In this document: one piece after another, positions 3,262 through 62,612 of the stretch | Position numbering within the stretch: the first letter of the stretch is position 1 | How the letters are laid out: every line of letters starts with the position of its first letter | Program-made: the position numbers and the translations under genes | DNA from: a virus | Taxonomy: Duplodnaviria > Caudoviricetes | Strand: one strand, 5' to 3' | IMG/VR virus record: IMGVR_UViG_3300029305_004678 | Span: 32,001 to 96,000 of that record | Length of the DNA: 64,000 bases | The notes under the pieces: model-generated | The model's database searches: none | What the model saw: only the letters and a program-made list of their open reading frames with translations | Told to the model about the DNA's origin: nothing

Positions 3262-3273
3262 TATTAATATGTG
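3262..3273 (-). promoter_or_regulatory. Late promoter variant CACA-N6-TA (also 54757); AACT variants at 10881 (+) and 18971 (-)
   Basis: Same spacing and position as the consensus copies. Confidence 0.6.
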
Positions 3274-3300
3274 AATTAAGTGGACAATAAAAGGAAAAAC

Positions 3301-3600
3301 AAAAAAAAAATAGTGGAGAGTGTTGTACACTCTCCATCTACTTCTTTATTGACTTTTCGACATCCCATAGTAGCGATTACGAGGAATACAGTCAATCACC
3401 TCTACAACTACTAATTGCTACGTCACTTTTGGGAACTATTAGTACCTGCGCAGGTAACTGGTTGATGTCACTAGTCCCCATAATGACTTATAATCAACCT
3501 GGTAGGATTTGCTCGTATTTATCGCCTCAATCACCTACCTTTATAGATGAGGCGTTTATTTTGAAGATATAGATATTTCCAATTGAAATATAATACCTTC
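3301..3600 (-). ncRNA. Candidate structured ncRNA: 5' hairpin, three tandem pseudoknots, intrinsic terminator
   Basis: No ORF; own AACA-N6-TG promoter (3600-3611); three stem-loops whose loops pair 6-7 bp with downstream segments; terminator with U10. Confidence 0.7.
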
Positions 3601-3625
3601 AAATATATGTTTATTAATTAATAAT

Positions 3626-3656
3626 AAAAAGGTAGGAATTAAATTCCTACCTTTTT
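3626..3656. terminator. Bidirectional terminator insulating the ncRNA
   Basis: aaaaaggtaggaatt/aattcctaccttttt. Confidence 0.8.
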
Positions 3657-3657
3657 A

Positions 3658-3960
3658 TTATATCTTTGTAATTACTGTAGTAATGGAAGATCCGGAAAGA
3701 GTCATACCAATAATGAAACGGTCACTGTATACAGAGAACTCCATATTGTTTAAGCTATTATATAGCTCTGTTGCACTTTCTTCACAATCCATCAAAAGTA
3801 TAAATTTTACAGTATCATTTGAACTATCTGTACAGATTTCAATATCCTGCCTACTGCCAACCAGGTTGTATAAAACCATTATTTCATCAAAATAATTAGT
3901 TACTATGTAGGGGATATTATCTGAATTTAGATTATGGACAAAGTCTTTAGTGGTTCCCAT
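3658..3960 (-). CDS. Hypothetical protein
   Basis: Start MGTTK at 3960 with GGAGG RBS. Confidence 0.7.
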   Translation of the reverse strand: MGTTKDFVHNLNSDNIPYIVTNYFDEIMVLYNLVGSRQDIEICTDSSNDTVKFILLMDCEESATELYNSLNNMEFSVYSDRFIIGMTLSGSSITTVITKI

Positions 3961-3964
3961 AGTA

Positions 3965-4231
3965 TTAGAATATTCCTCCTTCCGCGAAATCTTCAAAAGC
4001 TTCTTCCATAGCTTCAGCCGCTAAGGGGGATATAGTTTGGTTTTGGTTAGGTTGATTGTTTACATCAGTTGGCGGTTGTCGGTTTATTTGAGGATACTTA
4101 GGACCGCCCTTTCCATTTGCTTTTTCTTTTTCTTCTTTCTCTTGTCGTTCTTTCTCTGCCTTAGCTTGAGCTTCGGCACGAAGATACACTATGCGATAGA
4201 GTTCATGAAGCTCGTTGAAAGGGCGGTCCAT
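3965..4231 (-). CDS. Small gp51-like / tail-chaperone C-terminal ORF, possibly expressed by -1 frameshift from the upstream gene
   Basis: Frame open back to ~4333; no RBS at the ATG; SIQDLMDRPFNELHELY followed by a charged helix. Confidence 0.55.
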   Translation of the reverse strand: MDRPFNELHELYRIVYLRAEAQAKAEKERQEKEEKEKANGKGGPKYPQINRQPPTDVNNQPNQNQTISPLAAEAMEEAFEDFAEGGIF

Positions 4232-4287
4232 AAGATCTTGTATAGATACACGTCCTTTTAAAAAAGACGCTATCGATTCTACAAATT

Positions 4288-6111
4288 CTACATATTGCCG
4301 ATAGCTGCTAACTGATGCCGTGTAAAAAGCATTCTATCAGGAGTAATATTTTCTTCAGCGGGAATCTCAGTAGCACAATCGGGACAGGTACAAGCAGGAA
4401 TCATATAAGTAACCTGCTCACCCGGCTTATCATATTCCTTAATAGCTGCACCCAGGTTGAAATACTCTTCAGATGTCAACTGCTGGATAATGTCATAGAA
4501 TACTTTAATACGTCTAGCAGATGTCTTGGCCTGATCATTGTGATCTGGCTTAGTATCTACAGGAACTAGAGTCTGGTTAACATTGTCAATGTAGTAGATA
4601 CTATCAATATATGCAACAACATCAACAAGATCACCATGCTTCTCAAGGAAGCTATCAGACAGGCTAGCAGTCTCGATGATAACGTTCCATACAGAAGGAG
4701 CACGCAGACCAAATACATAAGAATCAGAGATCTGAACTAGATCGACAGGGTAAGTATCTTTGCTGGGAGAAGTGGTATCCAACTTCAGAATATCCTGAAC
4801 CTTCTTCTTTGCAGCATCATCAGCATACTTAACCATATCTTTGAATTCAATATCCTTAATGAATACCTTGTTACATTTATTGTTGGGGCAGCTAAAGCTC
4901 AGGAAGTTAGAACCACCAAATGTAGCCATATAGAGAGCAAAATAGATATGCTGAAGGTCGATAAATCTAACCTGCTTCAACCATGTCTCGAACTCTGGTT
5001 TATTAGCATCATATAAGTGGTCATAGATAACGCGATACATATCACGGAAAGTATTCAATCTATTACGATTAGAATTTTCGGGATTCAGTTTAAGAATTTC
5101 AGGACCAGACAGGCCTGTAACAGAAACAGGACGCTCTGCGGTAAACATAACCCAGTCTGCCACATTTCTGTGTGTCTGAACTGCAAGGCGCATAACCTTC
5201 TGAGCAGACTCGGACTTCTTTGCAATTGTAAATGCAGTCAGATCGATCTTATTACGAATAGGAGTAATTCTCTGCTTAACCTCAGCCTTCAGATCTTCAA
5301 TGATCTTATCACCATCTATGGTAGCAGAATCAGAATTTTCTGTTTCCTCTTCGAATAATTCTTCATTGGAAGTATGATCAAGAATTCTAAATGAGGGCTC
5401 AACAACGGTAGTTGCAGCTTCTTCCTTGGTAGGCTCATCAATAAAGGGCAGATCCTTAATCATTCCAACACGAGTAGATGCTGCAATATTTGCATCATTT
5501 CTCATAAATTCATCACCAGTTTTTTCTGTTAAAGGATTATAAGGTACAGTTGTTGAATTGGGATCAGCATGTGCAGAAGATGCCGAATCTTCTACCATAT
5601 TATGATTGATATGATTCATTTTAAAGTGATGATCATCTACTACATCAATATTTTCATCATCATATAAACCAAGATCATCATCTTCATCGATACTGGGAGC
5701 AATTCCCATATTAGTATTTACATTCTCAGCATCTTCAGCTTCCTGACGTTCCTCTTCCTGCTTAGAAGCAAGTTCTTCATGAAACTGAGAAATTCTATTT
5801 ATTTCTCTATCAACGGCAGCATCCAAATCAGCCATAATAGGATTATTTTCTGTCGACACACTAGCGGGTCTGCTAGGGAGTATCTGATGAATATCAACAG
5901 CCTGAGCATTAGAAAAATCTACAGGACCGTGGTTAATAGCTGTAGCTCTATACTGCTTTGCAGAATCTTCCTGATCGGGATTTGCTGTGGTAGCTTGCTG
6001 AGTCTTTGCAACATTATTAGGATTTTTTGCGGTGAGATCAAAACTCACACCAGAACCCGTGCGAGGTGCTTTAGACATCATTTCTTCTAAAGTAATTCTT
6101 TCATCAATCAT
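4288..6111 (-). CDS. T4 gp26-like baseplate hub assembly / tail chaperone with long acidic N-terminus
   Basis: Two Cys motifs (CPNNKC, CPDC) in the C-terminal domain; next to a gp25-like gene. Confidence 0.55.
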   Translation of the reverse strand: MIDERITLEEMMSKAPRTGSGVSFDLTAKNPNNVAKTQQATTANPDQEDSAKQYRATAINHGPVDFSNAQAVDIHQILPSRPASVSTENNPIMADLDAAVDREINRISQFHEELASKQEEERQEAEDAENVNTNMGIAPSIDEDDDLGLYDDENIDVVDDHHFKMNHINHNMVEDSASSAHADPNSTTVPYNPLTEKTGDEFMRNDANIAASTRVGMIKDLPFIDEPTKEEAATTVVEPSFRILDHTSNEELFEEETENSDSATIDGDKIIEDLKAEVKQRITPIRNKIDLTAFTIAKKSESAQKVMRLAVQTHRNVADWVMFTAERPVSVTGLSGPEILKLNPENSNRNRLNTFRDMYRVIYDHLYDANKPEFETWLKQVRFIDLQHIYFALYMATFGGSNFLSFSCPNNKCNKVFIKDIEFKDMVKYADDAAKKKVQDILKLDTTSPSKDTYPVDLVQISDSYVFGLRAPSVWNVIIETASLSDSFLEKHGDLVDVVAYIDSIYYIDNVNQTLVPVDTKPDHNDQAKTSARRIKVFYDIIQQLTSEEYFNLGAAIKEYDKPGEQVTYMIPACTCPDCATEIPAEENITPDRMLFTRHQLAAIGNM

Positions 6112-6129
6112 TTTTGTTTCCTCCTTTAA

Positions 6130-6510
6130 TTATAGATCAATCAGTTTGGTATAACCACTCTGAACGACTGTTGTATTTGTATCATAATAAATTCCATATA
6201 AAGTATCATCTATCTGTACAGAAATTTGGAATTGTTTATTTTTTTCTGTAACAGTTATTTGTGCGCCTTGAAATTGTGGTAAATATTTCTCAACTTGCCG
6301 CTGATACTCTCCTTGTAGTTGAACTCCTGCCCCTTCTACAGAATATCTATATTTAGATATGAGTCCAACTCCCATATCGGGATGTGATTGAATAGTTCCT
6401 GGCTCTAAAAGCAATAATCTTACCAATAGAGTAGAAACAGCTTCTGCATTTTTATAAATTTTCGGATTTTTGAAATCATCTACAGAAAACCCAAATTCGG
6501 TAATAGCCAA
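6130..6510 (-). CDS. Baseplate wedge protein, gp25/GpW-like
   Basis: LVRLLLLEPGTIQSHPDMGVGL signature; 126 aa; TTG start with GGAGG RBS. Confidence 0.75.
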   Translation of the reverse strand: MAITEFGFSVDDFKNPKIYKNAEAVSTLLVRLLLLEPGTIQSHPDMGVGLISKYRYSVEGAGVQLQGEYQRQVEKYLPQFQGAQITVTEKNKQFQISVQIDDTLYGIYYDTNTTVVQSGYTKLIDL

Positions 6511-6538
6511 TATACCATCCTCCTGTAGTAGAATTTTA

Positions 6539-6658
6539 TTAATCTGTTGTAGTAGTTAAAAAATACTCCCAAAAACCTGGCTTTTCAGTAACATATATGT
6601 AAGGGTTACTCAAATTGCCGTAATGGGTAGTCCGGTTCGCGGGATTGTTGTTTTTCAT
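6539..6658 (-). CDS. Small ORF, 39 aa (MKNNNPANRTTHYGNLSNPYIYVTEKPGFWEYFLTTTTD)
   Basis: TAGGAGGT RBS 6 nt before ATG; translated by hand. Confidence 0.4.
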   Translation of the reverse strand: MKNNNPANRTTHYGNLSNPYIYVTEKPGFWEYFLTTTTD

Positions 6659-6669
6659 TTTGATACCTC

Positions 6670-6702
6670 CTAAAAAATATATTTCTTTTCGTTCATTTTC
6701 AT
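6670..6702 (-). CDS. Micro-ORF, 10 aa (MKMNEKKYIF)
   Basis: AAGGAGGTG RBS; its stop codon overlaps the next RBS. Confidence 0.3.
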   Translation of the reverse strand: MKMNEKKYIF

Positions 6703-6781
6703 GTACACCTCCTTTTTCTTTGTTGTAGATACAAGACAGCTGTAGAAATACAGCTGTCTTGTCTTTGTTTCAAACACCCTC

Positions 6782-6793
6782 AACATAGTTGTA
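6782..6793 (+). promoter_or_regulatory. Late promoter AACA-N6-TA; other + strand copies at 15436, 24553, 28381, 48705, 52461, 59613, 60656
   Basis: Fixed spacing, just upstream of RBSs; matches the AR9 nvRNAP consensus. Confidence 0.8.
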
Positions 6794-6821: not shown

Positions 6822-8270
6822 ATGAGCACACCAAATTATAAGACTTCCAAGAAGTATAAATGTCCTTATTGTGATTATAAGGGAATTAGATCTGATGTAA
6901 TAAATCATGTAGATAAAAAACATGAAGATCTTATCCCGCAAGGATACACTGCAGCTAGAGCTGTATATGATTTTATAAATCATACAGATCATGGTACTTG
7001 TATGATTTGTAAATCTCCTGTATATGAATGGAATACAAAGATTAATAGGTATTATAATCTTTGTAAGAATCCTGCATGCAAAGCTAAAGTTAGAGAAATT
7101 GCCTTAGAAAGGCATATGAAGGTATATAATAAACCTCATCTATTAGATGACCCTGAACAGCAAGAGAAGATGCTAGCCAATAGAAAAATTTCTGGTACAT
7201 ATACATTCAAAGATGGAATAAAGCATACATACACTGGTACTTATGAGAAAAATGCTTTAGAGTTTATGGATAAAGTGCTAGATATTCCTGGTAAAGACAT
7301 TCAATCTCCTGGTCCTGTTCTTGAGTATGAATATGGTGGAAAAACTCATAAGTGGATTACTGATATCTACTATATTCCTGCAAATTTGCTTATTGAAGTT
7401 AAAGACGGTGGATCTAATCCTAATAATAGATCTATGCAGTCTTACAGAGAGAAACAGGTTGCAAAAGAAACTATGGTTACATCTCTTGGTACGTTTAATT
7501 ATATCCGTTTGACGAATAATGACTTCTCTCAGTTATTAGAAATTCTCGCCGATATGAAAGAGGGAGCTTTAACAGAAGATGATGATTCTCGTAATATGAG
7601 AATCAGAATAAATGAAGAGGTTGGTGGGCTTCCTCCCCATCGCCCTCCAGAAGCTTATATTATTCCATATGGTATGAATAATGTTTTTGATGGATTCGCT
7701 TATGGAGATTCTGAAAGCGATGATATTGCTATTGTAGATGAAGACTATAAATCAGTTACCATGAGTCGAGAAGACTTTGAGAAAAAATATACAGTTCCTG
7801 ATATAGCACTTATCTATAATGAAGCTGATACTATGGAAAAAATAAAGGCTATTAAGAATGAAATAGGTACTGGCCGCTGCGTTAATCGTTTACATTTTGT
7901 TGAAATGATTATTGGTCGTCCTCTTCGTTGCTTCGAGCAAATCTTAATGAATGAATACTTTAAGCTTTATGATGATAAAAAAGAAAAGCAAATAAATAAA
8001 TTAATTGAAAATGGTGTAGTTATGCAATCTAAGGAGATTGTAACAGGAAGAGATATATCCGAATATAACGTGGTTAAACGTATCGGTGTTGTTTCTATCC
8101 ATCATACTCCTAATGGATTTTATGCTTCTACTCCTAATGATTTTTCTATGGCTAGTGAATATTTTCCAACACTAGAAGATTTAGAGAGATCCGATGTAGT
8201 TTCTCTTATGAATAATGTATTTAATTCTCGATTCAAAACACCTATACAGGATGGTGATAGTAATGCCTAA
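6822..8270 (+). CDS. Zn-finger plus PD-(D/E)XK (TnsA/gp4-like) nuclease-domain protein
   Basis: CPYC..H..H, CMIC, WITDIYY...LLIEVKDG. Confidence 0.65.
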   Translation: MSTPNYKTSKKYKCPYCDYKGIRSDVINHVDKKHEDLIPQGYTAARAVYDFINHTDHGTCMICKSPVYEWNTKINRYYNLCKNPACKAKVREIALERHMKVYNKPHLLDDPEQQEKMLANRKISGTYTFKDGIKHTYTGTYEKNALEFMDKVLDIPGKDIQSPGPVLEYEYGGKTHKWITDIYYIPANLLIEVKDGGSNPNNRSMQSYREKQVAKETMVTSLGTFNYIRLTNNDFSQLLEILADMKEGALTEDDDSRNMRIRINEEVGGLPPHRPPEAYIIPYGMNNVFDGFAYGDSESDDIAIVDEDYKSVTMSREDFEKKYTVPDIALIYNEADTMEKIKAIKNEIGTGRCVNRLHFVEMIIGRPLRCFEQILMNEYFKLYDDKKEKQINKLIENGVVMQSKEIVTGRDISEYNVVKRIGVVSIHHTPNGFYASTPNDFSMASEYFPTLEDLERSDVVSLMNNVFNSRFKTPIQDGDSNA

Positions 8271-10818: not shown

Positions 10819-10825
10819 TCATATA

Positions 10826-10860
10826 GGGGTGGAATATATTCCACCCCTCTTCCATTTTAT
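10826..10860 (+). terminator. Intrinsic terminator
   Basis: ggggtggaat/attccacccc. Confidence 0.75.
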
Positions 10861-10921
10861 TGTAAAACTATATGCTCTTAAACTTACTATTAAGAAATTT
10901 AAATAAATTGGAGGAAAAATC

Positions 10922-11935
10922 ATGTCATTATTTTCTAGAGATGGTATGCTTACCGGAACAGAAATTGAACGTAGGGTAAAGAAGGGCCACATCCAGATTA
11001 CTCCCTACGATCCTAAGTGTGTAAACCCCAATAGTTATAATTTAAAGCTTCACCCTCAGCTTCTTATTTATAAGAGAGATGCTGAGAGAGCAAATATTAC
11101 TCCCCATATCGCTAGGACATTTGAGAATACATCTATTAATATTTGTGATATGGTGCAGCATCAAGAAGGTGAAATTGGTATTGAAGTTGCTGATGCATCT
11201 AATATTTCTTATATTGATGAGCCTGCACGAAACAATGATGAAGGCGAAAACGTAAACACTGAATCTGTTCAAGAATCTGAAACTAAATATAGTGATTCTA
11301 ATAGTTCTGCTGATACAGAAATAAAGACTAGTTCCCATGGCATTAGTTTTATTACAGCCAATGTTATTACTGATAGATTTAAGGAGCTTGAGGGCGAATT
11401 TGATGAGAAGATAGACACTCTTGAAACCAAATGGAGCGGAGCATTCAATCAGCTTGGAGGTACTGTCGAGTATAATGACCGTAAGTCTCGTGAGAGAGAT
11501 GAAGAAATTAAATCTCTCCCTATTATTGATAGTAATTACTTACCTCCTCTCGATATGCATAAGAAAAATGAAACTATCGAGTTTGAGATTCCTGAAGAAG
11601 GATATGTCCTACAGCCTGGAGTTCTCTATATTGGTAGAACTGTAGAAAGAACTGCTACTGATAGATTTATCCCCATGATTAACGGTCGTTCTTCTGGCGG
11701 TAGATTAGGTATTTCTATACATATTTGTGCTGGTTTTGGAGATATCGGTTTTGATGGAACATGGACTCTTGAAATTACTGTGGTCGAACCCGTACGTATT
11801 TATCCTAATGAAGAAATTGCTCAAGTCTGTTTCTTTACCCCTGCAGGTAAAAAGGCAAAACTTTATAGAGGTAGATATTATAAACAGGAAGATGCTACAG
11901 CAAGTAGATTCTATCAGCCTAAAAAGGAGTATTGA
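10922..11935 (+). CDS. dcd: dCTP deaminase with ~155-aa internal insertion
   Basis: ITPYDPKCVNPNSYNLKL, GRSSGGRLG, AGFGDIGFDGTWTLEI, YRGRYYKQ. Confidence 0.9.
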   Translation: MSLFSRDGMLTGTEIERRVKKGHIQITPYDPKCVNPNSYNLKLHPQLLIYKRDAERANITPHIARTFENTSINICDMVQHQEGEIGIEVADASNISYIDEPARNNDEGENVNTESVQESETKYSDSNSSADTEIKTSSHGISFITANVITDRFKELEGEFDEKIDTLETKWSGAFNQLGGTVEYNDRKSRERDEEIKSLPIIDSNYLPPLDMHKKNETIEFEIPEEGYVLQPGVLYIGRTVERTATDRFIPMINGRSSGGRLGISIHICAGFGDIGFDGTWTLEITVVEPVRIYPNEEIAQVCFFTPAGKKAKLYRGRYYKQEDATASRFYQPKKEY

Positions 11936-11940
11936 TAATT

Positions 11941-12919: not shown

Positions 12920-12927
12920 TATATTAT
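12920..12927 (+). promoter_or_regulatory. Early promoter YATATTAT; also 553(-), 1510(-), 24519(-), 51728(+), variant TATAGTAT 48638(-)
   Basis: Upstream of non-structural genes, usually followed by N4-RTR; resembles AR9 and phiKZ early motifs. Confidence 0.65.
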
Positions 12928-13009
12928 ACTCATGAGTTCAAGATACTAATTTACAGTGTCTTTAACAATTTTGTAATCAAATTTTATTTTAGAAAAGGAG
13001 CTACCAATT

Positions 13010-15421: not shown

Positions 15422-15491
15422 ATCATAGATGCTTTAACATAAAGGTAGTGGATGGATCACTACCTTTATTTTTTTTTTCGAGGTGATTAAA

Positions 15492-18945: not shown

Positions 18946-19033
18946 GTAAATACACCTCACTTAATAAGATTATTAATAAGTTCAATACAATAAAATAGAG
19001 TAGGCTCCGAAGAGCCTACTCTATAATTTTAGA

Positions 19034-21312: not shown

Positions 21313-21403
21313 GAATTTATTTCCTCCTTATAATTTTATGAAAAGTCGTATTTCGTATTGACTTATTATAATGTTTTAGAAATACATTTGATATCCTTTA
21401 CTT

Positions 21404-22633: not shown

Positions 22634-22646
22634 TATTAACTCCTCC

Positions 22647-24005: not shown

Positions 24006-24115
24006 AGGAACTTATTTCCTCCTTTTTACGAATATTTACTTCTATGTTCAAGACTAAAAAGAAAAAATAAAGGACTGAAGACTCCCAATTAGGCAAGATT
24101 AAGTAATCACACAAA

Positions 24116-24394: not shown

Positions 24395-24594
24395 ATTTAT
24401 CAAACTCCTTTTCAATAGAGATTAAATTTTTTTAGAGACTTGCTATGTGATATGGAAAAGGAGTATTACTTAATTCATATGCCTCTTGAAAATCATTTAG
24501 ACCTTTATTTTCATCTTTATAATATACATTCAAGGACATATTTAACCTCGGCAACATTACATTAAGTAATTTGCCTGGAAGGGGGTAAATAGAA

Positions 24595-28380: not shown

Positions 28381-28420
28381 AACATTAAAATAAATGAAAA
28401 TTAAGGAGGATCCAACTATT

Positions 28421-32335: not shown

Positions 32336-32415
32336 AATATATACAACCTCCTTAAAGAGACTATTTTTAATATATTGTTGGAAGGGTCAAAATAACCCTT
32401 CCAACAACATTTAGT

Positions 32416-43407: not shown

Positions 43408-43513
43408 AAAATTATCCTCCTCATACAAAGAGATAAAGAATTTTATTAGTATGTTCTGCTAGTCAAAGAAGCCACGGTAGGAGCTATACTCTCCTACCGT
43501 GGTTAAATTAGAA

Positions 43514-43861
43514 TCATTCATTCTCAGAATCGGAATAATCTCCATACTGGAATCCACCAGTAACAGTATTCTTAAATTTAATAGTTCTAGCAAAGAGCTG
43601 ATTAGAACCAGTGGCTGCAGCACCAGAAAGAGCACCACATATAAATGCCTGTAGAGGGTCTGTAATTGTTTCAGAAAGACCAGCAGGATATACATAGAAC
43701 AATAAAATTGCAAGCAATCCGCCGATGAGAAGGCATATATGAGGAATAAGGTCTCTATAACCTTCTGCTTTAATCTTAACCATGATTTTCTTAGCTATTT
43801 CTGCAAGAATGTAAGTTACGATTAAAATGAATAAATTAAAGTAAGCATTCATCTTATGCAT
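43514..43861 (-). CDS. Holin, 3 TM, Gram-positive phage type
   Basis: IPHICLLIGG, GALSGAAATGSNQL; late promoter. Confidence 0.75.
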   Translation of the reverse strand: MHKMNAYFNLFILIVTYILAEIAKKIMVKIKAEGYRDLIPHICLLIGGLLAILLFYVYPAGLSETITDPLQAFICGALSGAAATGSNQLFARTIKFKNTVTGGFQYGDYSDSENE

Positions 43862-44042
43862 CTCCTTAGAAAAATATTTATTAATATGTTTTAAAATTAA
43901 TCGAGTATGGTAAATAAACCATACTCGATTAATAATTTATTTAATTAATAGCAATATAGACACAATTATAGGAATTAGGACAAATAATACCAATACAGCT
44001 CTAGAGATTGTATGCTTATCCATTTTTATTTTCTTTCTTCTT

Positions 44043-47000
44043 TTACTCATTGTACATATCCTCCAAATATTTTGGCTCAATACCCATAATATCCTTTACC
44101 TGTCTATCGAGTTCTATCATAGCTTTATTTATAGCTCCAGATACCCAAACAGATGTGACCATTCGAGCATTGAAAGAACGAGCTGCAAACAAAGCATGAA
44201 TGTTCTCATCAGGATGATATTCAGAGAAAGGCTCTTTTCCTTCAGGGAAAATATTTTTAACAACACCTTTATTGGCTGATTGGGCGACGCACTTATCTCC
44301 AACAGAAAGCATATCATTATACTTGATATAGAATACAATCATAACACCATCTATAGTATTTTTCATAATACCAGTGGTATCCATTTTGTAGTCAGGATCG
44401 AGTATATTTGCTCCATCGGCATTGTATTTCTTATACAATGCTTTTCGCCTCTTAATATCTTTCTCATATTCTACTACAATCTTACTCAGACTTTCAGACA
44501 TATCTTCAATCTCACAAGTTCTATAGATCTTGATATCCTGAATAGTTCCGGTATATTTACTCTTGAGCCTAATGCGTCCAAGATCAGAGACAAATTCAGG
44601 ATCAGTAATATTCTTCAAAAGAAGGTTAGCATCCTTCTCATCAAATGCATTCTGGAATATGATTAAAGGATCACCTTCTTGTATATACTGACCTACTTTT
44701 ACTAAAGAATATACATTAGCATTCTTTGAAATAGTGACGTCTTTCTGAACTACAACGTCGGTAGCCATAGCAGAAGAAAGCCAACTAGAAACTGATGTGG
44801 AATCTTCAAATCCTTCATCAGTATTCAATATTGCAACCTTAGCTAAAACACCTAAGTTATAAGCAAGATTATCACTTTCGCCAACAGAATTAGAATACGA
44901 TGTTTTATCATATGCTACTATATCATCTTTCTTAAACCTATCTCCAGCTTTAAGATCTGTATCTAGCTTAAGAGTAATATAGAAGCCGCCATCAGAATTC
45001 TTTTTAACCTGTTCTCTAAGATCTATTAATTCATTTGTAATTCCTGTACTACCACCAATAGCTGCTGTATATACAGAATTATCATAATGAATGACCATAA
45101 AATCTTTAGTAACTTCCAATACTTCTCCATTTTCTTTTGCCTTAAATGCAAACGTATCAGAAGATATATATGGCATAGCCTCATCTGCACCATTAGTAAT
45201 TAACAGAGGCATAGATTTAGCTGTACGCATAGAGTGCTTGGATGTCTGAATAAATGTCATTGCGGACCTGAAGGGATCGTCATGGCTTGTTCCGAATGGT
45301 GTTACTGCTTCACTCATACTCAGAGTCTTAGAGACGGACATATCGTCAGGATTGGTCTGCTTTATATATCCACGTATGCCAGCAACATCCATATCAATAG
45401 TAGTCTGTCTATTGATACCAACATTAGCAGCAAAACCTGTAGACATAGCAAGCTTATTAATCATAGAATCATCATATGTACGCTTATCAAGACTATAAGA
45501 TCTATCAGAGTTCATGCCAGAGAGACCTTTAAAGGAAACCGAGTTATTTGCTTCTATCTCAAGCAAAGGATTAAGAATAGAAAGATCAGAAGACATAGGA
45601 TCAGACATAATACCATCAATAACAGCACTACGCTTCATACTAATACCAACTTTTCTTCCATGCTTAACCTGAGATTTATAATCAGCATATGCTTTAGTAA
45701 TAGCCTTATAGAAATAACCAGCAATAATTTCACTTGTTCTATATCTATTACCGGAAATATCTGTATGACGATTATACTTGTTATCTGCTAAAAGATTATT
45801 AGCATACATAAGCATATCGAAATAATTGGAAGGAATTCTACAATCTCTACAGACTTCTGCAGTAATCGGATCTATAAATAGATCTGCGAAGTTATCAAGA
45901 CCGTCAGATAGAATTCTACCACCAAATTCATCCAAGAAATCTAACCACATAGATCTCTTATTAAGATCTTCAAGAGAATATGTCTCAGTAGGACAAACTG
46001 AAAGACCATTTAAGAGCATAGATGTAGCATAATTTACTGGATATCTGATATAGCCATCTGAGAATCTTATAATAGCCTCGGTATCAGGATTGAAGCTCTT
46101 TTTATCATCACTTCTATATTCTCCAGAAATGCCACAAAGTTTCATAACTCCATCCATACCAAGAGAATACCCAATAACAACAACCAGAGGTATTCTATTA
46201 GCCATAACGCTAGCTTCAGAATAATTTAATCTAGTAGCGGATTTTTGAGCTTTAAATAAATCATCAAATTTTATCGACATTGAGGATATTTCATCAGCGA
46301 TCACATAGCTTAACATAGCAGATTGATCTTTATAATATCTCACAGAGCTATCAATTTTATTTATAGCATATGGAATACCGTTTTTCTTATCTGCATCAAA
46401 TTTAGTGTAATATATATCCTGATCAAAATAGTATATTGCTTCTTCGGTTTCTATTCTCATTACATTCTTCGCCACATCTATATAGTCTGTAGGAAGCTCA
46501 TGCTTAGAACAGATAGCACCATTATCGCCAAACACTATCTTTATATCAGAACCATTATACTTACGTAAAGCCTTAATCAATCTATCAGAAGTTGGATAAG
46601 ATCTTCCCTCTAATCCTTTACGTCTGATAAATATCTTGTTATAGTTACTGACACACTGTACAGTGTCCTCATCAGTTTTAAGACAAGGCAATAATAGTAG
46701 CTGACCAGAAACAACTTTCTCATTACCTCTTAATCTCATAAATCTATGATTTATTAATTTAGGTATATCGAATACCAATGTAGATCTCTTTCCATATCCA
46801 TCTTCAGTTACTACAGTATAAGTATAGAGATAATCCATATTATTAGATGTATCCTCAATATTAATATCTACAACAGAGATAGGATATGACTTATTAGCAA
46901 ATGAATGGATAATTTTAATTATATCATTATTTGCATCATAAGCAGCATTAAAGTTAATAAACTTTATGTCATCCCATTCTTCATTTATAGAAGATATATT

Positions 47001-47822
47001 GAGGTGCTTTGAGGGGATAGGAATTTCACTAGTTTTATATACAATATCGCTTATTTTAGTATCGCCAAGCTTTTTATCAAGGAATTCATCATTAAGTTTG
47101 GCTATACGACTAGTACGTGCATTATTAAACTGAGGTTTACCATCATCCTCTTCTTCGAGATCGAGAATAATCTGTTTAATATATTCATCTTCTTCTATAG
47201 CAGACCATGCTTCATCCTCATTCTCCGCATCCTCTGCAGCATTAGCTATCGCTGCTACCAGTTCCTGTTTCTTATCATCTCTTTCAGATTTCTTACTTTC
47301 AAATGTATCAGATACTACATCCTTAACAGGAGACTTCAATCCAGAAACATTAGTAAAATGAGGAATAGAATGCTGAACTAATGTATTTAATAAGAATTCG
47401 ACAGTTCTGAATTCAGAAGATTTATAATCATCTGCATATAAACTAAACGATTCTCTATTATCATTATAAAAAATAAATACGATATTAGAGAACTGCCTTT
47501 TAAATTCATCCGGATTAGATTTAATATAACGGCAGATAGTGCCTAATGGTGTCTTAGACTCTATCAGTCTATTAGTACCCTTTCTATACCATTTAGATAC
47601 AGGTATATAGATGATTCTCTTGGAATAATTACTAACCTCTTTACAAGTTAAAGCTAATAATTTCATAAAAGAAGAATCTTCTAATTTTTGATACTGCTTG
47701 GTATCGATTATAGCACCACGACCATCAAGTTCTTTTATACTGTCGGTTGTGGCTTTGATACCCCTTTTCTTTAATTTAGAATCTATTTCTTGAGTTAATG
47801 CATTTTCATTAAAATAATTCAT
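44043..47822 (-). CDS. Phage multisubunit RNA polymerase beta subunit lacking the C-terminal segment (probably virion RNAP)
   Basis: TPFGTSHDDPFRSAM, EGFEDS, GDKCVAQSANKGVV, NARM. Confidence 0.92.
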   Translation of the reverse strand: MNYFNENALTQEIDSKLKKRGIKATTDSIKELDGRGAIIDTKQYQKLEDSSFMKLLALTCKEVSNYSKRIIYIPVSKWYRKGTNRLIESKTPLGTICRYIKSNPDEFKRQFSNIVFIFYNDNRESFSLYADDYKSSEFRTVEFLLNTLVQHSIPHFTNVSGLKSPVKDVVSDTFESKKSERDDKKQELVAAIANAAEDAENEDEAWSAIEEDEYIKQIILDLEEEDDGKPQFNNARTSRIAKLNDEFLDKKLGDTKISDIVYKTSEIPIPSKHLNISSINEEWDDIKFINFNAAYDANNDIIKIIHSFANKSYPISVVDINIEDTSNNMDYLYTYTVVTEDGYGKRSTLVFDIPKLINHRFMRLRGNEKVVSGQLLLLPCLKTDEDTVQCVSNYNKIFIRRKGLEGRSYPTSDRLIKALRKYNGSDIKIVFGDNGAICSKHELPTDYIDVAKNVMRIETEEAIYYFDQDIYYTKFDADKKNGIPYAINKIDSSVRYYKDQSAMLSYVIADEISSMSIKFDDLFKAQKSATRLNYSEASVMANRIPLVVVIGYSLGMDGVMKLCGISGEYRSDDKKSFNPDTEAIIRFSDGYIRYPVNYATSMLLNGLSVCPTETYSLEDLNKRSMWLDFLDEFGGRILSDGLDNFADLFIDPITAEVCRDCRIPSNYFDMLMYANNLLADNKYNRHTDISGNRYRTSEIIAGYFYKAITKAYADYKSQVKHGRKVGISMKRSAVIDGIMSDPMSSDLSILNPLLEIEANNSVSFKGLSGMNSDRSYSLDKRTYDDSMINKLAMSTGFAANVGINRQTTIDMDVAGIRGYIKQTNPDDMSVSKTLSMSEAVTPFGTSHDDPFRSAMTFIQTSKHSMRTAKSMPLLITNGADEAMPYISSDTFAFKAKENGEVLEVTKDFMVIHYDNSVYTAAIGGSTGITNELIDLREQVKKNSDGGFYITLKLDTDLKAGDRFKKDDIVAYDKTSYSNSVGESDNLAYNLGVLAKVAILNTDEGFEDSTSVSSWLSSAMATDVVVQKDVTISKNANVYSLVKVGQYIQEGDPLIIFQNAFDEKDANLLLKNITDPEFVSDLGRIRLKSKYTGTIQDIKIYRTCEIEDMSESLSKIVVEYEKDIKRRKALYKKYNADGANILDPDYKMDTTGIMKNTIDGVMIVFYIKYNDMLSVGDKCVAQSANKGVVKNIFPEGKEPFSEYHPDENIHALFAARSFNARMVTSVWVSGAINKAMIELDRQVKDIMGIEPKYLEDMYNE

Positions 47823-47844: not shown

Positions 47845-47856
47845 TATTTATTTGTT
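47845..47856 (-). promoter_or_regulatory. Late promoter AACA-N6-TA; other - strand copies at 6537, 21364, 24037, 32368, 43444, 43879, 51594, 59544, 62586
   Basis: Same motif upstream of RNAP beta, TMP, holin and other structural genes. Confidence 0.8.
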
Positions 47857-48612: not shown

Positions 48613-48761
48613 TACAAGACACCTCCTTTCTACATATATACTATACAATCGAAGGGGATAATAATTTCATATAAATAAGGCATTAAGATAAATTGCCTAT
48701 CTAGAACATTCTAATAAATACTTTTTATAAGTATTCAATCTATTTTGGAGGTAAAAATATT

Positions 48762-51570: not shown

Positions 51571-51737
51571 TATACCATCCTCCTTAATTAATTTAATTAA
51601 ATGTTCATAGAGGGACTTTTAGCCTAATTAATGAAAAAAAAAAGAATCCATATGGATGGGGAGCTCTATATGGATTCTTTCTATAGACATAGGAATAGCT
51701 ATATGTAATTCTATTTCATAGTAAGCACATATTATAG

Positions 51738-52003: not shown

Positions 52004-52496
52004 AGAAGAATGAGCCACCGGATGAGTACATGTCCGGTGGCTCATCGAGAATAGGTATAGATGTCTTTCGCTAAATTAACAAAATTCTTTCAATCTCATA
52101 TAAAGTAAACACAAACCACAAATGATTACAATATACTTGTACTACATTATTGCTTGGTGAAGAATGATAATAGAAAATAGATTTATACTATTGGAACAGA
52201 TTTACTTATTATGTAGTACCGAGATTGTATATTAGTATAATACCATTTAGGTAAGGAGAATGAATAACCTAAAATAATTCTTATACTAATATAATTTTGG
52301 ATGAGACCGCGCTATACCCATAACTCGCAGGAGAGTAGAAAGAAGAATAAATATTTTGTGTTGTTTTACAAAACATCTATTTTCTTCATCGCAATTATAT
52401 CTAAAGGAAATTTGATAATATTACGATTTATAACTAATCCTTGCTTTAAGTAATTATTTCAACATTTAAATAAATTAATCCTAGGAGGTTAGTATA

Positions 52497-54725: not shown

Positions 54726-54842
54726 AAATATAACCTCCATTATTTTTTTTTTGATTTATTAATATGTGAATTTAATCAAAATGGAGTATAAAATATTTAT
54801 AAATAGAAATTGTATTAATAACTGACATTTGATATATTAATC

Positions 54843-58913: not shown

Positions 58914-59516
58914 TCAGAAGGATGTTCCTTCAGCAGAAGGAAGCGATGTAGCGATACCAAATCTTACTATACCATCACCGCTATCTTCTGCAGTAATAAC
59001 AATAGGAGAATCAGTCCATATAGCTGCACCATTAGATACATATAAGAACTGACCTTCATTTTCTTCAGTTATTTCAGGAAGCTCACTACCAGATTCTTCT
59101 GCGAGCTTCTGTGTAAACTCTTCTTCAGTACCAGTATAACCACCATCTTGGGCATACTGATATGCGCTTTTACCAGTAGCACCTGTAGGACCAATAGAAC
59201 CAGTAGCACCCGTAGGACCAACAGGGCCGGTAGGACCAATAGAACCAGTAGCACCCGTAGGACCAACAGGGCCGGTAGGACCAATAGAACCAGTAGCACC
59301 CGTAGGACCAACAGGGCCGGTAGGACCAATAGAACCAGTAGCACCCGTAGGACCAACAGGTCCTCTAAGATTCAATAGAATATCAGAGGAGTCGTCACTA
59401 CTCCTCATATAAAGATTACCATTTTCTTCATCGACAGATAACTCCCTAGGATAGTACTTCGCGCCACTCTCATAAGGAGCTACTCTAGTTGGATGACGAA
59501 TATCTTCAACAGACAT
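58914..59516 (-). CDS. Collagen-like fibre protein
   Basis: About 22 Gly-X-Y triplets; [17 protein letters not shown]. Confidence 0.85.
59172..59360. repeat. 45-bp tandem repeat x~4 encoding [15 protein letters not shown]
   Basis: Unit gtaggaccaatagaaccagtagcacccgtaggaccaacagggccg. Confidence 0.9.
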
Positions 59517-59649
59517 AAGTTATTTTCCTCCTTCGAGTAATTTTATTTATATGTTTTCTGGCATTAAGTTCACAAGGCATAGATCTGAGAGCATCTTGGC
59601 AGGCACTCTCCAAACATATGAATAAGAATTTAGAGAGGACTGAGTTGCA

Positions 59650-60612
59650 ATGAATTACATTGATTTTGTATCTAAACCACTTTTCTTAACTAATGTAACT
59701 GATGGAGTTGGAGATGCATCTGATGCTGTTGTCTCTATATCCAAAGCTATTTCTGAATACGGCCCTCTTATCGTTATTATGGCAGTTTTTGTTATTGTTT
59801 TTGTATTGATGGCTATATTGATACTTAGAAATAATGCAAAAATGATGAATCAGCTAATGACTGATAAAGAAACGGCGGAATCTAATAACCAACAGATGAT
59901 AGAAAAATTTGTAACAGCTGCACTTGAAAATCATGGAGTTAGTTCTAATAACACAAATGTTGAAGATCTTATAAAAGATATGAAGAAGAGTGTTGATGAG
60001 CTAAATAATCAAAAGAAGAAAGAAGAAAAAGAAGATGATCCAGATGATTATCATAAAGATATTGTTGGAGCCTATATTGATGTAAATATGGCCTTCAAGG
60101 ATGCATCTAGGAAAACTCTTTCAATTCTTGATTGCCAAAGAGTTGGAATTTATGTATTTCATAATGGAAATAATTCTTTGCACGGATTACCATTTTTTAA
60201 AATGTCTTGTATCCATGAATGGACTACTCGTGGATGCAATACGTTAAGAGGTAAATCTCATATAGATATGCCTCTTCATTTATTCAATGATTTTATTGAA
60301 GATTTATATAATCATGGAATTTATAAATCTCAAGATGTCTCTAAGGGTAAGGAAGAAGATCCTTCTCTTGAGGAGTTTATAGAGTTCTCTCATACAAAAG
60401 CTCTCTATATGATCGCCATTAAAGATGCTGACGGTGTTCTTGTTGGATTTGTAATAGCAGAATTTGAGAACGTTGATAATTTTGAACAAGACGAAGCCCG
60501 AGATAAATTTATACGGGAAAACCTTAATGCTATGGTGTTCAATGTTTCTCCATTCGTTGCCAACAAATATGTATTTAGAAGAATACAAGATCAGCATAAT
60601 AATAATGGGTAG
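59650..60612 (+). CDS. Single-TM protein with GAF-like domain (T4 holin T-like)
   Basis: TM helix, coiled coil, then RVGIYVFHNG..LPFFKMSCIHE..LVGFVIAEF. Confidence 0.55.
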   Translation: MNYIDFVSKPLFLTNVTDGVGDASDAVVSISKAISEYGPLIVIMAVFVIVFVLMAILILRNNAKMMNQLMTDKETAESNNQQMIEKFVTAALENHGVSSNNTNVEDLIKDMKKSVDELNNQKKKEEKEDDPDDYHKDIVGAYIDVNMAFKDASRKTLSILDCQRVGIYVFHNGNNSLHGLPFFKMSCIHEWTTRGCNTLRGKSHIDMPLHLFNDFIEDLYNHGIYKSQDVSKGKEEDPSLEEFIEFSHTKALYMIAIKDADGVLVGFVIAEFENVDNFEQDEARDKFIRENLNAMVFNVSPFVANKYVFRRIQDQHNNNG

Positions 60613-60691
60613 AAGCAGGTTATCCTGCTTCTACCCCTTCTCTTTTTATATGTATAACATTTTAATAAATTAAAAAAATGGAGGACTAAAA

Positions 60692-61186
60692 ATGGATTAT
60701 TTAGGTTTAATCGCTGGATTGATTTTGATCCTTGCAGCAGCTATAATAATTGGCATTAAGCTTTATAAGAAAAATAAAGAGACTGGTACTACTATCTCTT
60801 TTGATGAGTTTATTGAAGCATATGGACAGCAGATTATCCAAGTTCTTATCGACATTATCCAGTTACTGAAATTGGATCAGGGGTCCTATGAGAATAAGGA
60901 AGAATATGAGTATACTGTAATCTATATGACTATAGATAAATTGAAAGAAAATTCTGTAGAACTTGGTATCGATAAAGAGATAATTAATATGATTGATACA
61001 GAGACATTGACTGGAATAGTACAGAAAGTTCTTCATAATGAGGTTATGGAAATCTTTAATGAATCCACTCAGTCTGTAACTATTGGAGATGGTTCTTCTC
61101 TTGATGAGAATGATACAGGTACATCTAATTCTTTATTGAATGAGGTTCCTTATACTGATGAAGTAAATAATTCTGAATCTGAATAA
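60692..61186 (+). CDS. N-terminal TM protein, possible holin or lysis regulator
   Basis: One TM helix plus acidic helical domain; late promoter. Confidence 0.45.
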   Translation: MDYLGLIAGLILILAAAIIIGIKLYKKNKETGTTISFDEFIEAYGQQIIQVLIDIIQLLKLDQGSYENKEEYEYTVIYMTIDKLKENSVELGIDKEIINMIDTETLTGIVQKVLHNEVMEIFNESTQSVTIGDGSSLDENDTGTSNSLLNEVPYTDEVNNSESE

Positions 61187-61228
61187 TTAAAAAATATAGG
61201 AGAAGCTTTTAAGGCTTCTCCTATTTAT

Positions 61229-62566
61229 TTATTTCTTATCACTTTCAGATATTCTGTTTTTATTAGCAGATGTTTTAGTAATTACATAGTCATTTATATA
61301 ATCACCATCTACATATACTCCTATAAAAGTACCAGTATTTCTAATAGGTGTATTACTCTTAAATGTAAGAGTTTCCCAATCAAATTTACCGGTTATATAT
61401 TCTCCACCATTGAAGAAAATTAGATCACAGAATATAGCAGGAGATACTCCTTTTGACAAGCAATCTGCTATACATTCTCCTATATCTCCCTCAAGAAGTT
61501 CAGAAAAGTCTACTTCTAGTGGAAGATTGATTTTGTCTTCATCATCTTCATAAGTTGTAGACATATATAAAGGCCAATTATATTTATTCTTATCAGGAAC
61601 GACAGATCCTTTAAATGTATAACATGTACTTACTGGGCCATTGGGTTGATACCATGCTCCATAAACTGTTTTAAGTTTATGAGCATTATCAGAATAATAT
61701 GCATACATTTTAGGAGCAGGAAATCTAACTTCTACAGAGAATTCGATTCCAAAATTATTAGTCATCTGTCCTTCTCTTTCTCCATCATCTGCAGAAAGAT
61801 CTTGAGGTCTTAAATGCACATACATATTTCTCATTCTAATAAAGAATTCATTATTTCCATTAAGTGTACGATGTTTATATAAGAAAGGTAATGTACTATG
61901 CATATTTAACCATCTTAAGAATCCAGGTACATTCTTAATTGTCTCTTTAATATTTCCTTCAGAGACAGTTTCAGTCTGTACTTCAAAACCATTATCCCTA
62001 GCCAATTGAATCATGAGGGTATAGGGAATGTGAAAATCCAAATCTACGTCTTCACCACATGTGAATCCAATTCTACATGCAAGCTTTATAAATTTGAAAA
62101 TATCAAGCTGCTGAGCCCTAGTTTCTACTTTAAGACGGAAATTAAATCTCATTAACATAGTCTCCATACCTATTCCCATATAAGAGGAATTAGAAGGAGC
62201 ATTAAAGAATGAATTCTTAAATTTACCAGTCTGTACGTAAAGATCCATTCCATAAGGATAAGAATCAATACTTTCATTATCAAAATCCCATGATATGGAA
62301 GGTGTGATTGTAAGCGCAGGCTTTTGTCTTTTCAACAGCTCTAACTTACTAAGAGATCTGAAATCATCGTATATATTCTTTCCATCTATATAGATGGATT
62401 TAAATGTATCTTTAGGGAATTTAGATAAAAACCATTTTTTCATGTACTCTATACAAAGAGAATATGCTTGAACTGTACTAGGTACACATATACTTCTATA
62501 AAGAGTCTTAGAATGTTGCTGCCTAAAAGTATTTATATCAATGGGTTTAAGATTAGACATATCCAT
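61229..62566 (-). CDS. Virion structural protein, possibly tail completion
   Basis: 445 aa; late promoter at 62586. Confidence 0.5.
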   Translation of the reverse strand: MDMSNLKPIDINTFRQQHSKTLYRSICVPSTVQAYSLCIEYMKKWFLSKFPKDTFKSIYIDGKNIYDDFRSLSKLELLKRQKPALTITPSISWDFDNESIDSYPYGMDLYVQTGKFKNSFFNAPSNSSYMGIGMETMLMRFNFRLKVETRAQQLDIFKFIKLACRIGFTCGEDVDLDFHIPYTLMIQLARDNGFEVQTETVSEGNIKETIKNVPGFLRWLNMHSTLPFLYKHRTLNGNNEFFIRMRNMYVHLRPQDLSADDGEREGQMTNNFGIEFSVEVRFPAPKMYAYYSDNAHKLKTVYGAWYQPNGPVSTCYTFKGSVVPDKNKYNWPLYMSTTYEDDEDKINLPLEVDFSELLEGDIGECIADCLSKGVSPAIFCDLIFFNGGEYITGKFDWETLTFKSNTPIRNTGTFIGVYVDGDYINDYVITKTSANKNRISESDKK

Positions 62567-62612
62567 AAATTAAACCTCCTTTAATTATTTTTATGTTCTA
62601 GTATAAAAAATA

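Follow-up and report, generated by a model that had tools for sequence, protein, structure and literature searches.

AR9-type late promoters in an uncultured jumbo phage that probably has thymine DNA

Late genes of the AR9/PBS1 phages are transcribed by a five-subunit non-virion RNA polymerase (nvRNAP) holoenzyme containing gp226 (PMC5312081, PMC5449584, PMC9209446), from promoters with the consensus AACA-(6N)-TA/G, the last base being the transcription start site (PMC5312081, PMC9209446). In AR9 gp226, the C-beta of Val206 lies 3.9 Å from C5 of uracil, and V206G is the only change shown to admit thymine, the engineered protein accepting T and U at position -10 equally (PMC9209446). Among cultured phages other than AR9/PBS1, a gp226 homolog is confined to Staphylococcus phages S6, MarsHill, Madawaska and Machias, Listeria phage LPJP1, Bacillus phage BpSp and Yersinia phage phiR1-37 (21 records). 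The early motif TATATTAT has been reported for MarsHill, whereas published work on MarsHill and phiR1-37 did not recover the late motif de novo. A further multisubunit phage polymerase with a sigma-like fifth subunit, the phiKZ nvRNAP with gp68, works on thymine DNA and, unlike the system described here, uses the late promoter TATG.

Here, we analyse a 64-kb window (the whole stretch of DNA under study) from an IMG/VR fragment of 159.8 kb, contig C1, that derives from an uncultured phage. The fragment is ~65% complete and its relatives have genomes of 215-290 kb, in agreement with the initial annotation, which had called it a probable jumbo phage. Among cultured phages it is related to the group of AR9/PBS1, S6, LPJP1 and phiR1-37, sharing ~30% identity with them in RNAP beta, and for this group DNA with deoxyuridine (dU) has been shown or is presumed (PMC7598289). 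Genes on the contig are crude ORF calls and do not come from a trained gene finder; coordinates given with C1 (the gp226-like exons and ThyX) refer to the contig, and all other positions to the window. For comparison we used 20 near-complete relatives, each at least 90% complete, and a cultured dU-DNA set consisting of AR9, BpSp, S6 and phiR1-37 together with LPJP1, a presumed member.

Late promoter sites and their enrichment

The window contains 19 exact copies of AACA-N6-TA that each lie at most 90 nt upstream of an ORF start on the same strand, mostly 31-57 nt from the start codon; the initial annotation had counted 18. On the plus strand, the sites are found at 6782..6793, before the operon 6822-12861 (an endonuclease-like protein, an 867-aa protein, a dCTP-deaminase-like (DCD) protein and a 309-aa protein); at 12964..12975, before 13010-13771, a gene with both promoter classes, its early-type TATATTAT-6N-G lying at 12920-12934; at 24553..24564, before the virion structural gene 24595-25656 and a 900-aa gene; at 28381..28392, before 28394/28421-29365; at 48705..48716, before the endolysin gene 48762-49454; at 52461..52472, before 52497-53342; at 59613..59624, before 59650-60612; and at 60656..60667, before 60692-61186. 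The plus-strand motif at 15436..15447, before 15483-16709, is less certain because it overlaps a terminator-like hairpin.

On the minus strand, the sites lie at 6537..6548 (AACAGATTAATA), before the ORF 6130-6510; at 21364..21375, before 20242-21312; at 24037..24048, before the virion structural genes 22647-24005 and 21404-22657; at 32368..32379, before the virion structural gene 30662-32335; at 43444..43455, before the gene for a 3670-aa tape-measure/lysin protein (32416-43428); at 43879..43890, before 43514-43861; at 47845..47856, before the RNAP beta-like gene 44043..47822; at 51594..51605, before 49495-51570; at 59544..59555, divergent from 59613..59624(+) and before a tail-fibre-like (collagen-like) gene, 58914-59516; and at 62586..62597, before 61229-62566. 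A 20th exact copy, 63206-63217(-), overlaps a Shine-Dalgarno sequence within a gene and is probably due to chance.

Five variants that had been proposed in addition could all be located, and none of the five alters the C or the second A, in line with what had been claimed. The CACA form CACATATTAATA is present twice on the minus strand, at 3262..3273 before the RNAP beta'-N-like gene and at 54757..54768 before the endolysin-like gene 53385-54740. The AACT forms are AACTTACTATTA at 10881..10892(+), before the DCD-like gene 10922..11935, and AACTTATTAATA at 18971..18982(-), directly past a terminator hairpin and before 16753-18960. The form with a TG ending, AACATATATTTG at 3600..3611(-), also stands directly past a terminator hairpin and is followed by a stretch free of ORFs.

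The raw count of the motif in the window is not enriched (42 against 57.2±7.6 expected) because the motif is depleted within genes, approximately 2-fold, with 26 copies on the coding strand and 20 on the antisense strand compared to 50.4±5.3 and 36.3±5.4, respectively, in synonymous-codon shuffles. The initial annotation had suggested comparing intergenic DNA with shuffled sequence, and such a comparison across the 159.8-kb contig, using 90-nt windows upstream of 175 crude gene calls and 1000 dinucleotide shuffles, gave 34 sense and 3 antisense copies against 8.7±2.9 (maximum 21). In these windows, most motifs cluster 31-48 nt ahead of the start codon. The same test applied to 84 kb of AR9 as a positive control gave 36 sense and 12 antisense copies (shuffles 8.4±2.6). 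Among the relatives, it gave 42 sense and 4 antisense copies in G003 (shuffles 10.3±3.1), and 38 sense and 12 antisense copies in G029 (shuffles 12.0±3.6), a complete relative with both ThyX and dUTPase.

The logo of the aligned sites reads AACA-[T/A]-W-N-W-A-A-T-A-A and contains no -35-like element. The conserved AACA and TA and their spacing are identical to those of AR9/PBS1, where a -35 is likewise absent and genes for virion proteins, lysis and the virion RNAP also follow the late motif. The sites lie on the coding strand, and their placement before such late-type units was described correctly in the initial annotation. Together with a gp226-family subunit, consensus, spacing and downstream genes support its claim of an AR9-type late promoter: the AACA-N6-TA signal before ~24 late genes is well supported as a real one.

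RNA polymerase genes and the gp226-like subunit

The RNAP beta-like subunit (44043..47822, minus strand; 1259 aa; PHROG 3148, E 1.7e-148) is probably a virion RNAP subunit, since a late promoter drives its gene. Its best cultured matches are S6, MarsHill, LPJP1, Goe21 and phiR1-37, at ~30% identity; it differs from its AR9/PBS1 counterpart, to which it is also only ~30% identical, in being a single chain, and its identity to phiKZ-type RNAP beta is only ~24%. The RNAP beta'-N-like subunit (1571..3337, minus strand, with 3244 as the better start; PHROG 2986, E 2.3e-79) carries the DYDGDQ catalytic motif, can be aligned to bacterial beta' and is probably a virion RNAP subunit as well.

A search for an AR9 gp226-like specificity subunit, suggested in the initial annotation, recovered a homolog as collinear exons at C1:22463-26771(-). 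The gene is riddled with introns, and interruption of transcription genes by group I introns is shared with AR9/PBS1. The exons match an HMM built from seven known homologs (E 5e-9, 5e-7 and 0.014), the match to phiR1-37 g245 is reciprocal, and G003 has an uninterrupted ORF that shares 74-95% identity with the exons. When a family member was modelled with AF2 (pLDDT 88.7), the best structural match was AR9 gp226 (7S01_A, E 8.7e-16), followed by phiKZ gp68 (8QUE_B, E 7.8e-6); in both fold and sequence the family is clearly nearer AR9 gp226 than gp68. An early promoter, TATATTAT-6N-G, stands 39 nt upstream of exon 1; this early promoter is common to both this phage and AR9/PBS1, and in both the gp226-like gene is placed under it. 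Neither gp105 nor gp089, the beta subunits of the AR9 nvRNAP, has a detectable homolog on the ~65%-complete contig; we assume that these homologs lie in its missing part because the relatives G003 and G029 carry both, with Arg363 of the -10 pocket kept.

Unlike AR9 gp226, the subunit has Ala in place of Val206 and Met in place of Tyr210, and all seven aligned cultured homologs keep Val206 and Tyr/Phe210. Position 206, invariant in the seven known homologs, is hypervariable in 42 relatives (G, A, T, P and others), and it has little predictive value within this clade since some relatives with Val also carry ThyX and dUTPase. As in the engineered AR9 V206G protein, a small residue would abut C5 of the -10 pyrimidine, though here it is Ala, not Gly, and Ala retains the C-beta (PMC9209446). 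Because the natural proteins are only ~20-30% identical to AR9 gp226, the geometry of the pocket may differ. The cultured phages that carry a gp226 homolog all sit in the dU-DNA group, an observation that speaks against thymine DNA in the present phage.

In the scheme that we propose, a virion-packaged RNAP would read the early promoters, including the one before the gp226-like gene, and a phage non-virion multisubunit RNAP with the gp226-family sigma-like subunit would then read the late promoters AACA-N6-TA(A), presumably by recognition of the template strand. This holoenzyme would start transcripts at the A of TA(A), giving leaders of ~20-35 nt that carry a Shine-Dalgarno sequence, and would transcribe the genes for virion proteins, tape-measure/lysin, endolysins, tail fibre and the virion-RNAP subunits.

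Thymidylate genes and the chemistry of the DNA

The contig encodes a ThyX (C1:125615-127015(-)) that keeps RHR..SQRY and the other canonical motifs, lies above the Pfam cut-off and scores 96.6 bits against an equivalog cut-off of 87.9 (TIGR02170). The DCD-like protein (10922..11935, plus strand; 337 aa) matches PF22769 with 122 bits and TIGR02274 with 93.8 against a cut-off of 92.8, and its best PDB matches are 2QXX, 2QLP and 1OGH. Its closest solved relatives are bifunctional dUMP-forming enzymes, and the protein is probably a dUMP-forming DCD-DUT that feeds ThyX. Were it a dCTP deaminase only, dUTP levels would rise, favouring dU-DNA over thymine DNA. A dUTPase was found neither on the contig, where the DCD-like gene stands in for it, nor in the three nearest relatives, and ThyA was not found on the contig. 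Thus, of the dUTPase and thymidylate synthase that the initial annotation had named together as evidence against uracil DNA, only the latter is seen. Among relatives, DCD (7) and dUTPase (13) are mutually exclusive, with none carrying both and three carrying neither.

These genes suggest a route dCTP -> dUMP -> dTMP through the dCTP-deaminase/dUTPase-like enzyme and a presumably active ThyX, with an unusual insert in the latter as a point against, and because both are encoded the DNA is probably ordinary thymine DNA, unlike that of AR9. A specificity subunit that lacks the thymine-excluding valine, on thymine DNA, implies that AR9-type recognition appears to work on T-DNA. We therefore favour, with reasonable but far from complete confidence, an AR9-like transcription system operating on thymine DNA. 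Since the same motif is enriched in G029, which bears ThyX and dUTPase, an AR9-type promoter motif alone is not diagnostic of dU-DNA.

The initial annotation had instead proposed uracil-substituted DNA read by a uracil-dependent AR9-like polymerase, which now appears unlikely. The promoter consensus is that of AR9, both RNAP beta and gp226 have their nearest cultured relatives solely within the shown or presumed dU-DNA group (PMC7598289), the window has a DCD-like gene on a contig with no detected dUTPase or ThyA, and the C-beta of Ala206 could clash with the methyl group of thymine. However, ThyX is present and above its equivalog cut-off, and ThyX, ThyA, dUTPase and DCD are found in none of the five cultured genomes of the dU-DNA set. 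Of the 20 near-complete relatives, 17 have a thymidylate synthase (ThyX in 15, ThyA in two) and 12 a dUTPase. The "absolutely conserved" Val206 is not retained, and homologs of AR9 Ugi, which the annotation had led us to look for, and of its dCMP deaminase are lacking on the contig, a further difference from AR9/PBS1, and were not found in G000, G003 or G029. A weaker argument is that ordinary metagenomes yielded assemblies of over 40 relatives, including several that carry terminal repeats, although the DNA of dU phages is refractory to standard library preparation (bioRxiv 10.1101/2020.12.14.422802).

Somewhat less probable still is a pyrimidine modified at C5, distinct from both plain T and plain U, made by an insert-bearing ThyX-like enzyme and accommodated by a position-206 pocket shaped accordingly. 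The ThyX does have an unusual insert of ~145 aa that is found clade-wide, the relatives having open frames of 398-580 aa, and YerA41, the DNA of which is heavily modified, is among the few phage matches of the DCD-like protein. Against this, the enzyme keeps all canonical motifs and passes the TIGR02170 equivalog cut-off, an ordinary ThyA replaces ThyX in some relatives, and an unsystematic look noticed no hydroxymethylase or other modification genes.

It is very improbable that the motif acts at the RNA level, or that the host RNAP and a sigma factor, from phage or host, use it as an AT-rich element of extended -10 type. The AT-rich spacer and downstream bases (for example TATTAATAA) loosely resemble a -10 hexamer, but AACA and TA are invariant at fixed spacing with neither a TATAAT hexamer nor a -35, and the AR9 nvRNAP consensus mapped by experiment is the same. 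In addition, a gp226-family subunit is encoded here and nvRNAP beta subunits in relatives, and the motif is kept even in relatives that share only ~35% identity with this phage in the gp226-like exon B.

Late promoter motif and the genes behind it

The non-virion RNA polymerase (nvRNAP) of phage AR9 is the textbook case of an enzyme that reads the template strand of its promoters and needs uracil. The late consensus of AR9 comprises AACA at positions -11 to -8, six free bases and a T followed by A or G, the last base being the transcription start site (PMC5312081). A logo of 32 sites on the 159,799-bp contig of the phage studied here, positions 32,001-96,000 of which form the window, reads AACA-[T/A]-W-N-W-A-A-T-A-A and includes this consensus, and with no conserved upstream element in the alignment of these sites, the motif matches AR9 late promoters in bases, spacing and the absence of a -35 element. 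Across the whole contig, the 90-nt windows upstream of 175 ORFs (our own crude calls) contain the motif 34 times in sense and 3 times in antisense orientation, compared with 8.7±2.9 (maximum 21) in 1000 dinucleotide-preserving shuffles of the same windows, so that the motif is enriched over shuffled upstream DNA. Applied to 84 kb of AR9 as a control, this test gave 36 sense and 12 antisense copies against 8.4±2.6 in shuffles. Spacing from motif to start codon on the contig is concentrated at 31-48 nt, and 19 of the 48 crude ORFs in the window have an exact motif on the coding strand at most 100 nt upstream.

As a raw word, AACA-N6-TA is not enriched in the window, where a plain search of both strands returned 42 matches compared with 57.2±7.6 expected in shuffles. 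This low count arises because the motif is depleted inside genes: in the coding regions of the contig it is about two-fold rarer on both strands than in synonymous-codon shuffles, with 26 copies versus 50.4±5.3 on the coding strand and 20 versus 36.3±5.4 on the antisense strand. The depletion suggests selection against stray promoters, and its two-fold size suggests that the six motif bases are functionally sufficient. All five variant motifs listed in the initial annotation were located in the window, namely CACA at 3262-3273 and 54757-54768, AACT at 10881-10892 and 18971-18982, and a TG ending at 3600-3611 (-), the last one after a terminator hairpin and before an ORF-free stretch (region 3301-3611 including the variant). 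Two of the five directly follow terminator-like hairpins.

According to PHROG annotations, the motif stands upstream of, and co-oriented with, virion, lysis and putative virion-RNAP genes. Among the downstream products, four proteins are annotated as 'virion structural' and two are endolysin-like; a 3670-aa tape-measure/lysin and a collagen-like tail fibre also occur. In the 3670-aa protein (32416-43428, -), tape-measure-like regions are joined to a pair of endolysin-type domains close to the C-terminus (PHROGs 167/58 and 20388/21357). Additionally, an 867-aa late-operon protein (8215-10818, +) has a weak ClpP/enoyl-CoA-hydratase-like PHROG match (E 9.5e-13) and no Pfam match, and may be a prohead protease or scaffold fusion.

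Late motifs also precede both RNAP genes of the window, a placement that virion-packaged RNAP subunits would be predicted to have; one gene encodes a 1259-aa beta-like protein (44043-47822, -; PHROG 3148, E 1.7e-148) and the other a beta'-N-like protein with the catalytic motif DYDGDQ (1571-3337, -). A PDB sequence search returned no match for the former and only bacterial beta' for the latter, with no AR9 nvRNAP chains among the matches. Because of this outcome and the late promoters, there is a hint that the two proteins are virion-RNAP subunits. The best cultured matches of the beta-like protein, at about 30% identity, are Staphylococcus jumbo phages (PB50, S6, MarsHill and others), Listeria LPJP1, Bacillus Goe21 and Yersinia phiR1-37, followed by Fusobacterium phages (26%) and then phiKZ-like phages (about 24%). 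A megablast search with the RNAP beta gene found no close match to this phage among 50,697 cultured phage records. The IMG/VR record is listed as a linear contig with about 65% completeness, and the full genome should therefore be roughly 245 kb.

A gp226-like specificity subunit and its position 206

In the AR9 late holoenzyme, binding of the template strand at 3'-UUGU-N6-AU-5' is the task of gp226, the fifth subunit, and depends on U at -11 and -10; Val206 of gp226 lies against C5 of the uracil at -10, and a V206G mutant accepts T (PMC9209446). The counterpart of this specificity subunit was found by tblastn with AR9 gp226 (E 7e-7) at contig positions 22463-26771 (-), equivalent to 2463-6771 of locus L002 and roughly 5-9.5 kb upstream of the window. 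A gp226 HMM built from seven known homologs matched four collinear pieces of the gene (E 5e-9, 0.014 and 5e-7, and one weak), so that homology to AR9 gp226 extends along its length over four exons, and the match to g245 of phiR1-37 is reciprocal. Five or more group I introns (Rfam RF00028) split the gene, and the exon map was confirmed by the uninterrupted ORF of a near-complete relative (G003), with 74-95% identity. Exon 1 carries the N-terminal signature of the family, as seen when its translation is compared with the consensus, and begins 39 nt downstream of an early promoter.

An AF2 model (pLDDT 88.7) of P0013, a full-length family member 49% identical to exon B of this phage, matched AR9 gp226 best (7S01_A, E 8.7e-16, probability 1.00) and phiKZ gp68 second. 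By way of this model, the subunit is predicted to have the gp226 fold, with an N-terminal domain including a sigma2-like part and a C-terminal domain. Together with the logo, the 34 to 3 orientation bias and the late genes downstream, the gp226 homolog strengthens the initial annotation's interpretation of the motif as an AR9-type late promoter, which holds as a sequence-based assignment.

The introns have features of their own. One of them contains a 369-aa HNH-like ORF (L002:3577-4686), and an intron directly after the same gp226-like exon is also found in many relatives. Between exons 1 and 2, a tRNA-Leu(UAA) (L002:5958-6045, -; ARAGORN; Rfam tRNA 54.8 bits) sits within a group I intron called by Rfam.

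The 2.1bis helix reads A-I-W-N-M in this phage versus V-[I/M]-W-x-[Y/F] in all seven known homologs, and both the invariant Val206 and the aromatic residue at 210 are absent. When 1.84 billion representatives were searched exhaustively with HMMER, 106 homologs of the gp226-like exon emerged, in which the tryptophan beside position 206 is almost invariant and position 206 itself is occupied by V (25), G (17), T (15), a gap (13), I (7), A (6), K (6), P (5) and others. In 42 relatives from IMG/VR the equivalent position is hypervariable (A, T, G, V, I, R, P, L, K or H), and the four closest relatives, with 68-79% identity, already differ from one another there. Residue 206 was rejected as a predictor of U or T because valine co-occurs with the thymidylate synthase ThyX and dUTPase in relatives. 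If confirmed, the clade would represent a natural substitution series (A, G, T, P, V, I, K, R) at the position that discriminates U from T.

Thymidylate synthesis and the base of the DNA

The contig encodes a ThyX at 125615-127015 (L014:1303-2703, -), which scores 108 bits against Pfam Thy1 and 96.6 bits against TIGR02170 (equivalog cut-off 87.9 bits) and retains the GHTSVMEH, RHR..SQRY and Arg motifs. An insert of about 145 aa lies between the GHTSVMEH and RHR motifs; given that the open frames of ThyX in relatives span 398-580 aa, the insert appears to be clade-wide. The window additionally encodes a 337-aa protein of the dCTP deaminase (DCD) family at 10922-11935 (PF22769, 122 bits; TIGR02274, 93.8 against a cut-off of 92.8). 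Among solved structures, 2QXX/2QLP and 1OGH come closest, with E. coli Dcd scoring far lower. The closest structures are the bifunctional, dUMP-forming dCTP deaminase-dUTPases of M. tuberculosis and M. jannaschii.

Thymidylate synthase and dUTPase would be expected to be lacking in jumbo phages with uracil-substituted DNA (dU-DNA) of the PBS1/AR9, S6 and phiR1-37 type, and none of ThyX, ThyA, dUTPase and DCD was found in the five genomes of the cultured group (AR9, BpSp, LPJP1, S6 and phiR1-37). In contrast, the contig has ThyX, while ThyA, dUTPase, dCMP deaminase (PF00383) and UDG are absent from this roughly 65% of the genome. The initial annotation had expected dUTPase and ThyA to be missing, and both are indeed absent from the contig; it had also regarded a genome encoding thymidylate synthase and dUTPase as contrary to its view, of which the synthase is present in the form of ThyX and the dUTPase is absent from the fragment. 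The absence of UDG is uninformative, as is that of thymidylate kinase, which is missing from the contig and the cultured dU-DNA genomes alike. AR9 encodes a UDG inhibitor (g104) and a dCMP deaminase (g221), whereas tblastn at E<=1e-3 found no counterparts, including the UDG inhibitor that had been anticipated, in this phage or in the relatives G003 and G029, which is weak evidence given the fast divergence of Ugi-like proteins and the incomplete genome of this phage. Likewise, tblastn against the recovered contig returned nothing for AR9 gp105 and gp089 (nvRNAP beta subunits), Ugi, dCMP deaminase, N-glycosylase and guanylate kinase. Homologs of nvRNAP beta were found only in G003 and G029, which have both beta-N and beta-C and retain Arg363 of the -10 pocket.

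The 42 IMG/VR loci with gp226-like genes (L016-L057) were fetched with a family alignment from the exhaustive HMMER search; single-protein queries (gp226 exon B, RNAP beta) returned no related loci, and a mixed alignment with known gp226 homologs was too diverse to use as a query. Many of these contigs are 215-290 kb long and several have terminal repeats. In counts that are phylogenetically non-independent, ThyX is encoded by 19 of the 42 relatives and by 15 of the 20 that are at least 90% complete, ThyA by five (including two more of these 20), and dUTPase-family genes by 18 (12 of the 20). The possibility that the dUTPase matches are dCTP deaminases was considered and rejected; the G029 protein best fits dut models, though below curated cut-offs. 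Among 23 records at least 75% complete, seven have DCD only, 13 dUTPase only, three neither and none both, and because the two never co-occur there, they are suggested to be interchangeable suppliers of dUMP to thymidylate synthase. The motif is in plain use in such genomes: G003, the nearest near-complete relative, with ThyX and DCD, has 42 sense and 4 antisense copies (shuffles 10.3±3.1), and the complete G029, with ThyX and a dut-like gene, has 38 and 12 (shuffles 12.0±3.6).

Based on this gene content, the phage probably has thymine DNA. Plain uracil DNA, as proposed in the initial annotation from the motif, was not borne out and is unlikely: ThyX and the DCD-like protein are the equipment of a thymine-making phage, the uracil-selective Val206 is not retained, and relatives encoding thymidylate synthase and dUTPase use the same motif. 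These points also count indirectly against a need for deoxyuridine at template positions -11 and -10. That the DNA contains some other C5-modified base is very unlikely. Beyond thymine DNA in this phage, there is a slightly better than even chance that a large and wholly uncultured jumbo-phage clade, with no fewer than 42 IMG/VR contigs and, for the gp226-like subunit, 106 protein-cluster representatives, operates the AR9-type system (gp226-like subunit and AACA-N6-TA) on ordinary thymine DNA.

In the cited reviews and primary papers, gp226 homologs are described only for phages with demonstrated or presumed uracil DNA (PMC9209446; PMC7598289; PMC13282480), and a targeted, non-exhaustive search found no literature description of an AR9-type promoter system in phages encoding thymidylate synthase. 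The clade described here is large and uncultured, has this promoter and this specificity-subunit family, and mostly encodes thymidylate synthase, often together with dUTPase. If thymine DNA is the rule in this clade, the uracil dependence of AR9 would be a specialisation of one cultured branch rather than a property of the system, and the thymine-tolerant pocket engineered as V206G would already have been explored by nature. The clade would further need other means against the firing of a six-base promoter on host DNA. Confirmation would decouple the promoter system from DNA chemistry and reopen the question of how so short a promoter is phage-specific without uracil. In practice, AACA-N6-TA alone is unfit for calling dU-DNA phages in metagenomes.

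Early promoters

The MarsHill study (bioRxiv 10.1101/2020.12.14.422802) found the early motif TATATTAT but no late motif de novo, and noted that dU-DNA is refractory to standard library preparation. On our contig, the AR9 early consensus TATATTAT-6N-G has 13 sense and 3 antisense copies in the upstream windows. Early and late motifs stand in tandem at 12920-12934 and 12964-12975 (+) before ORF 13010-13771, an arrangement likewise known from AR9, where continuously expressed genes have both promoter classes (PMC5312081). A further early motif at 24512-24526 (-) is predicted to drive a small gene surrounded by late structural genes.
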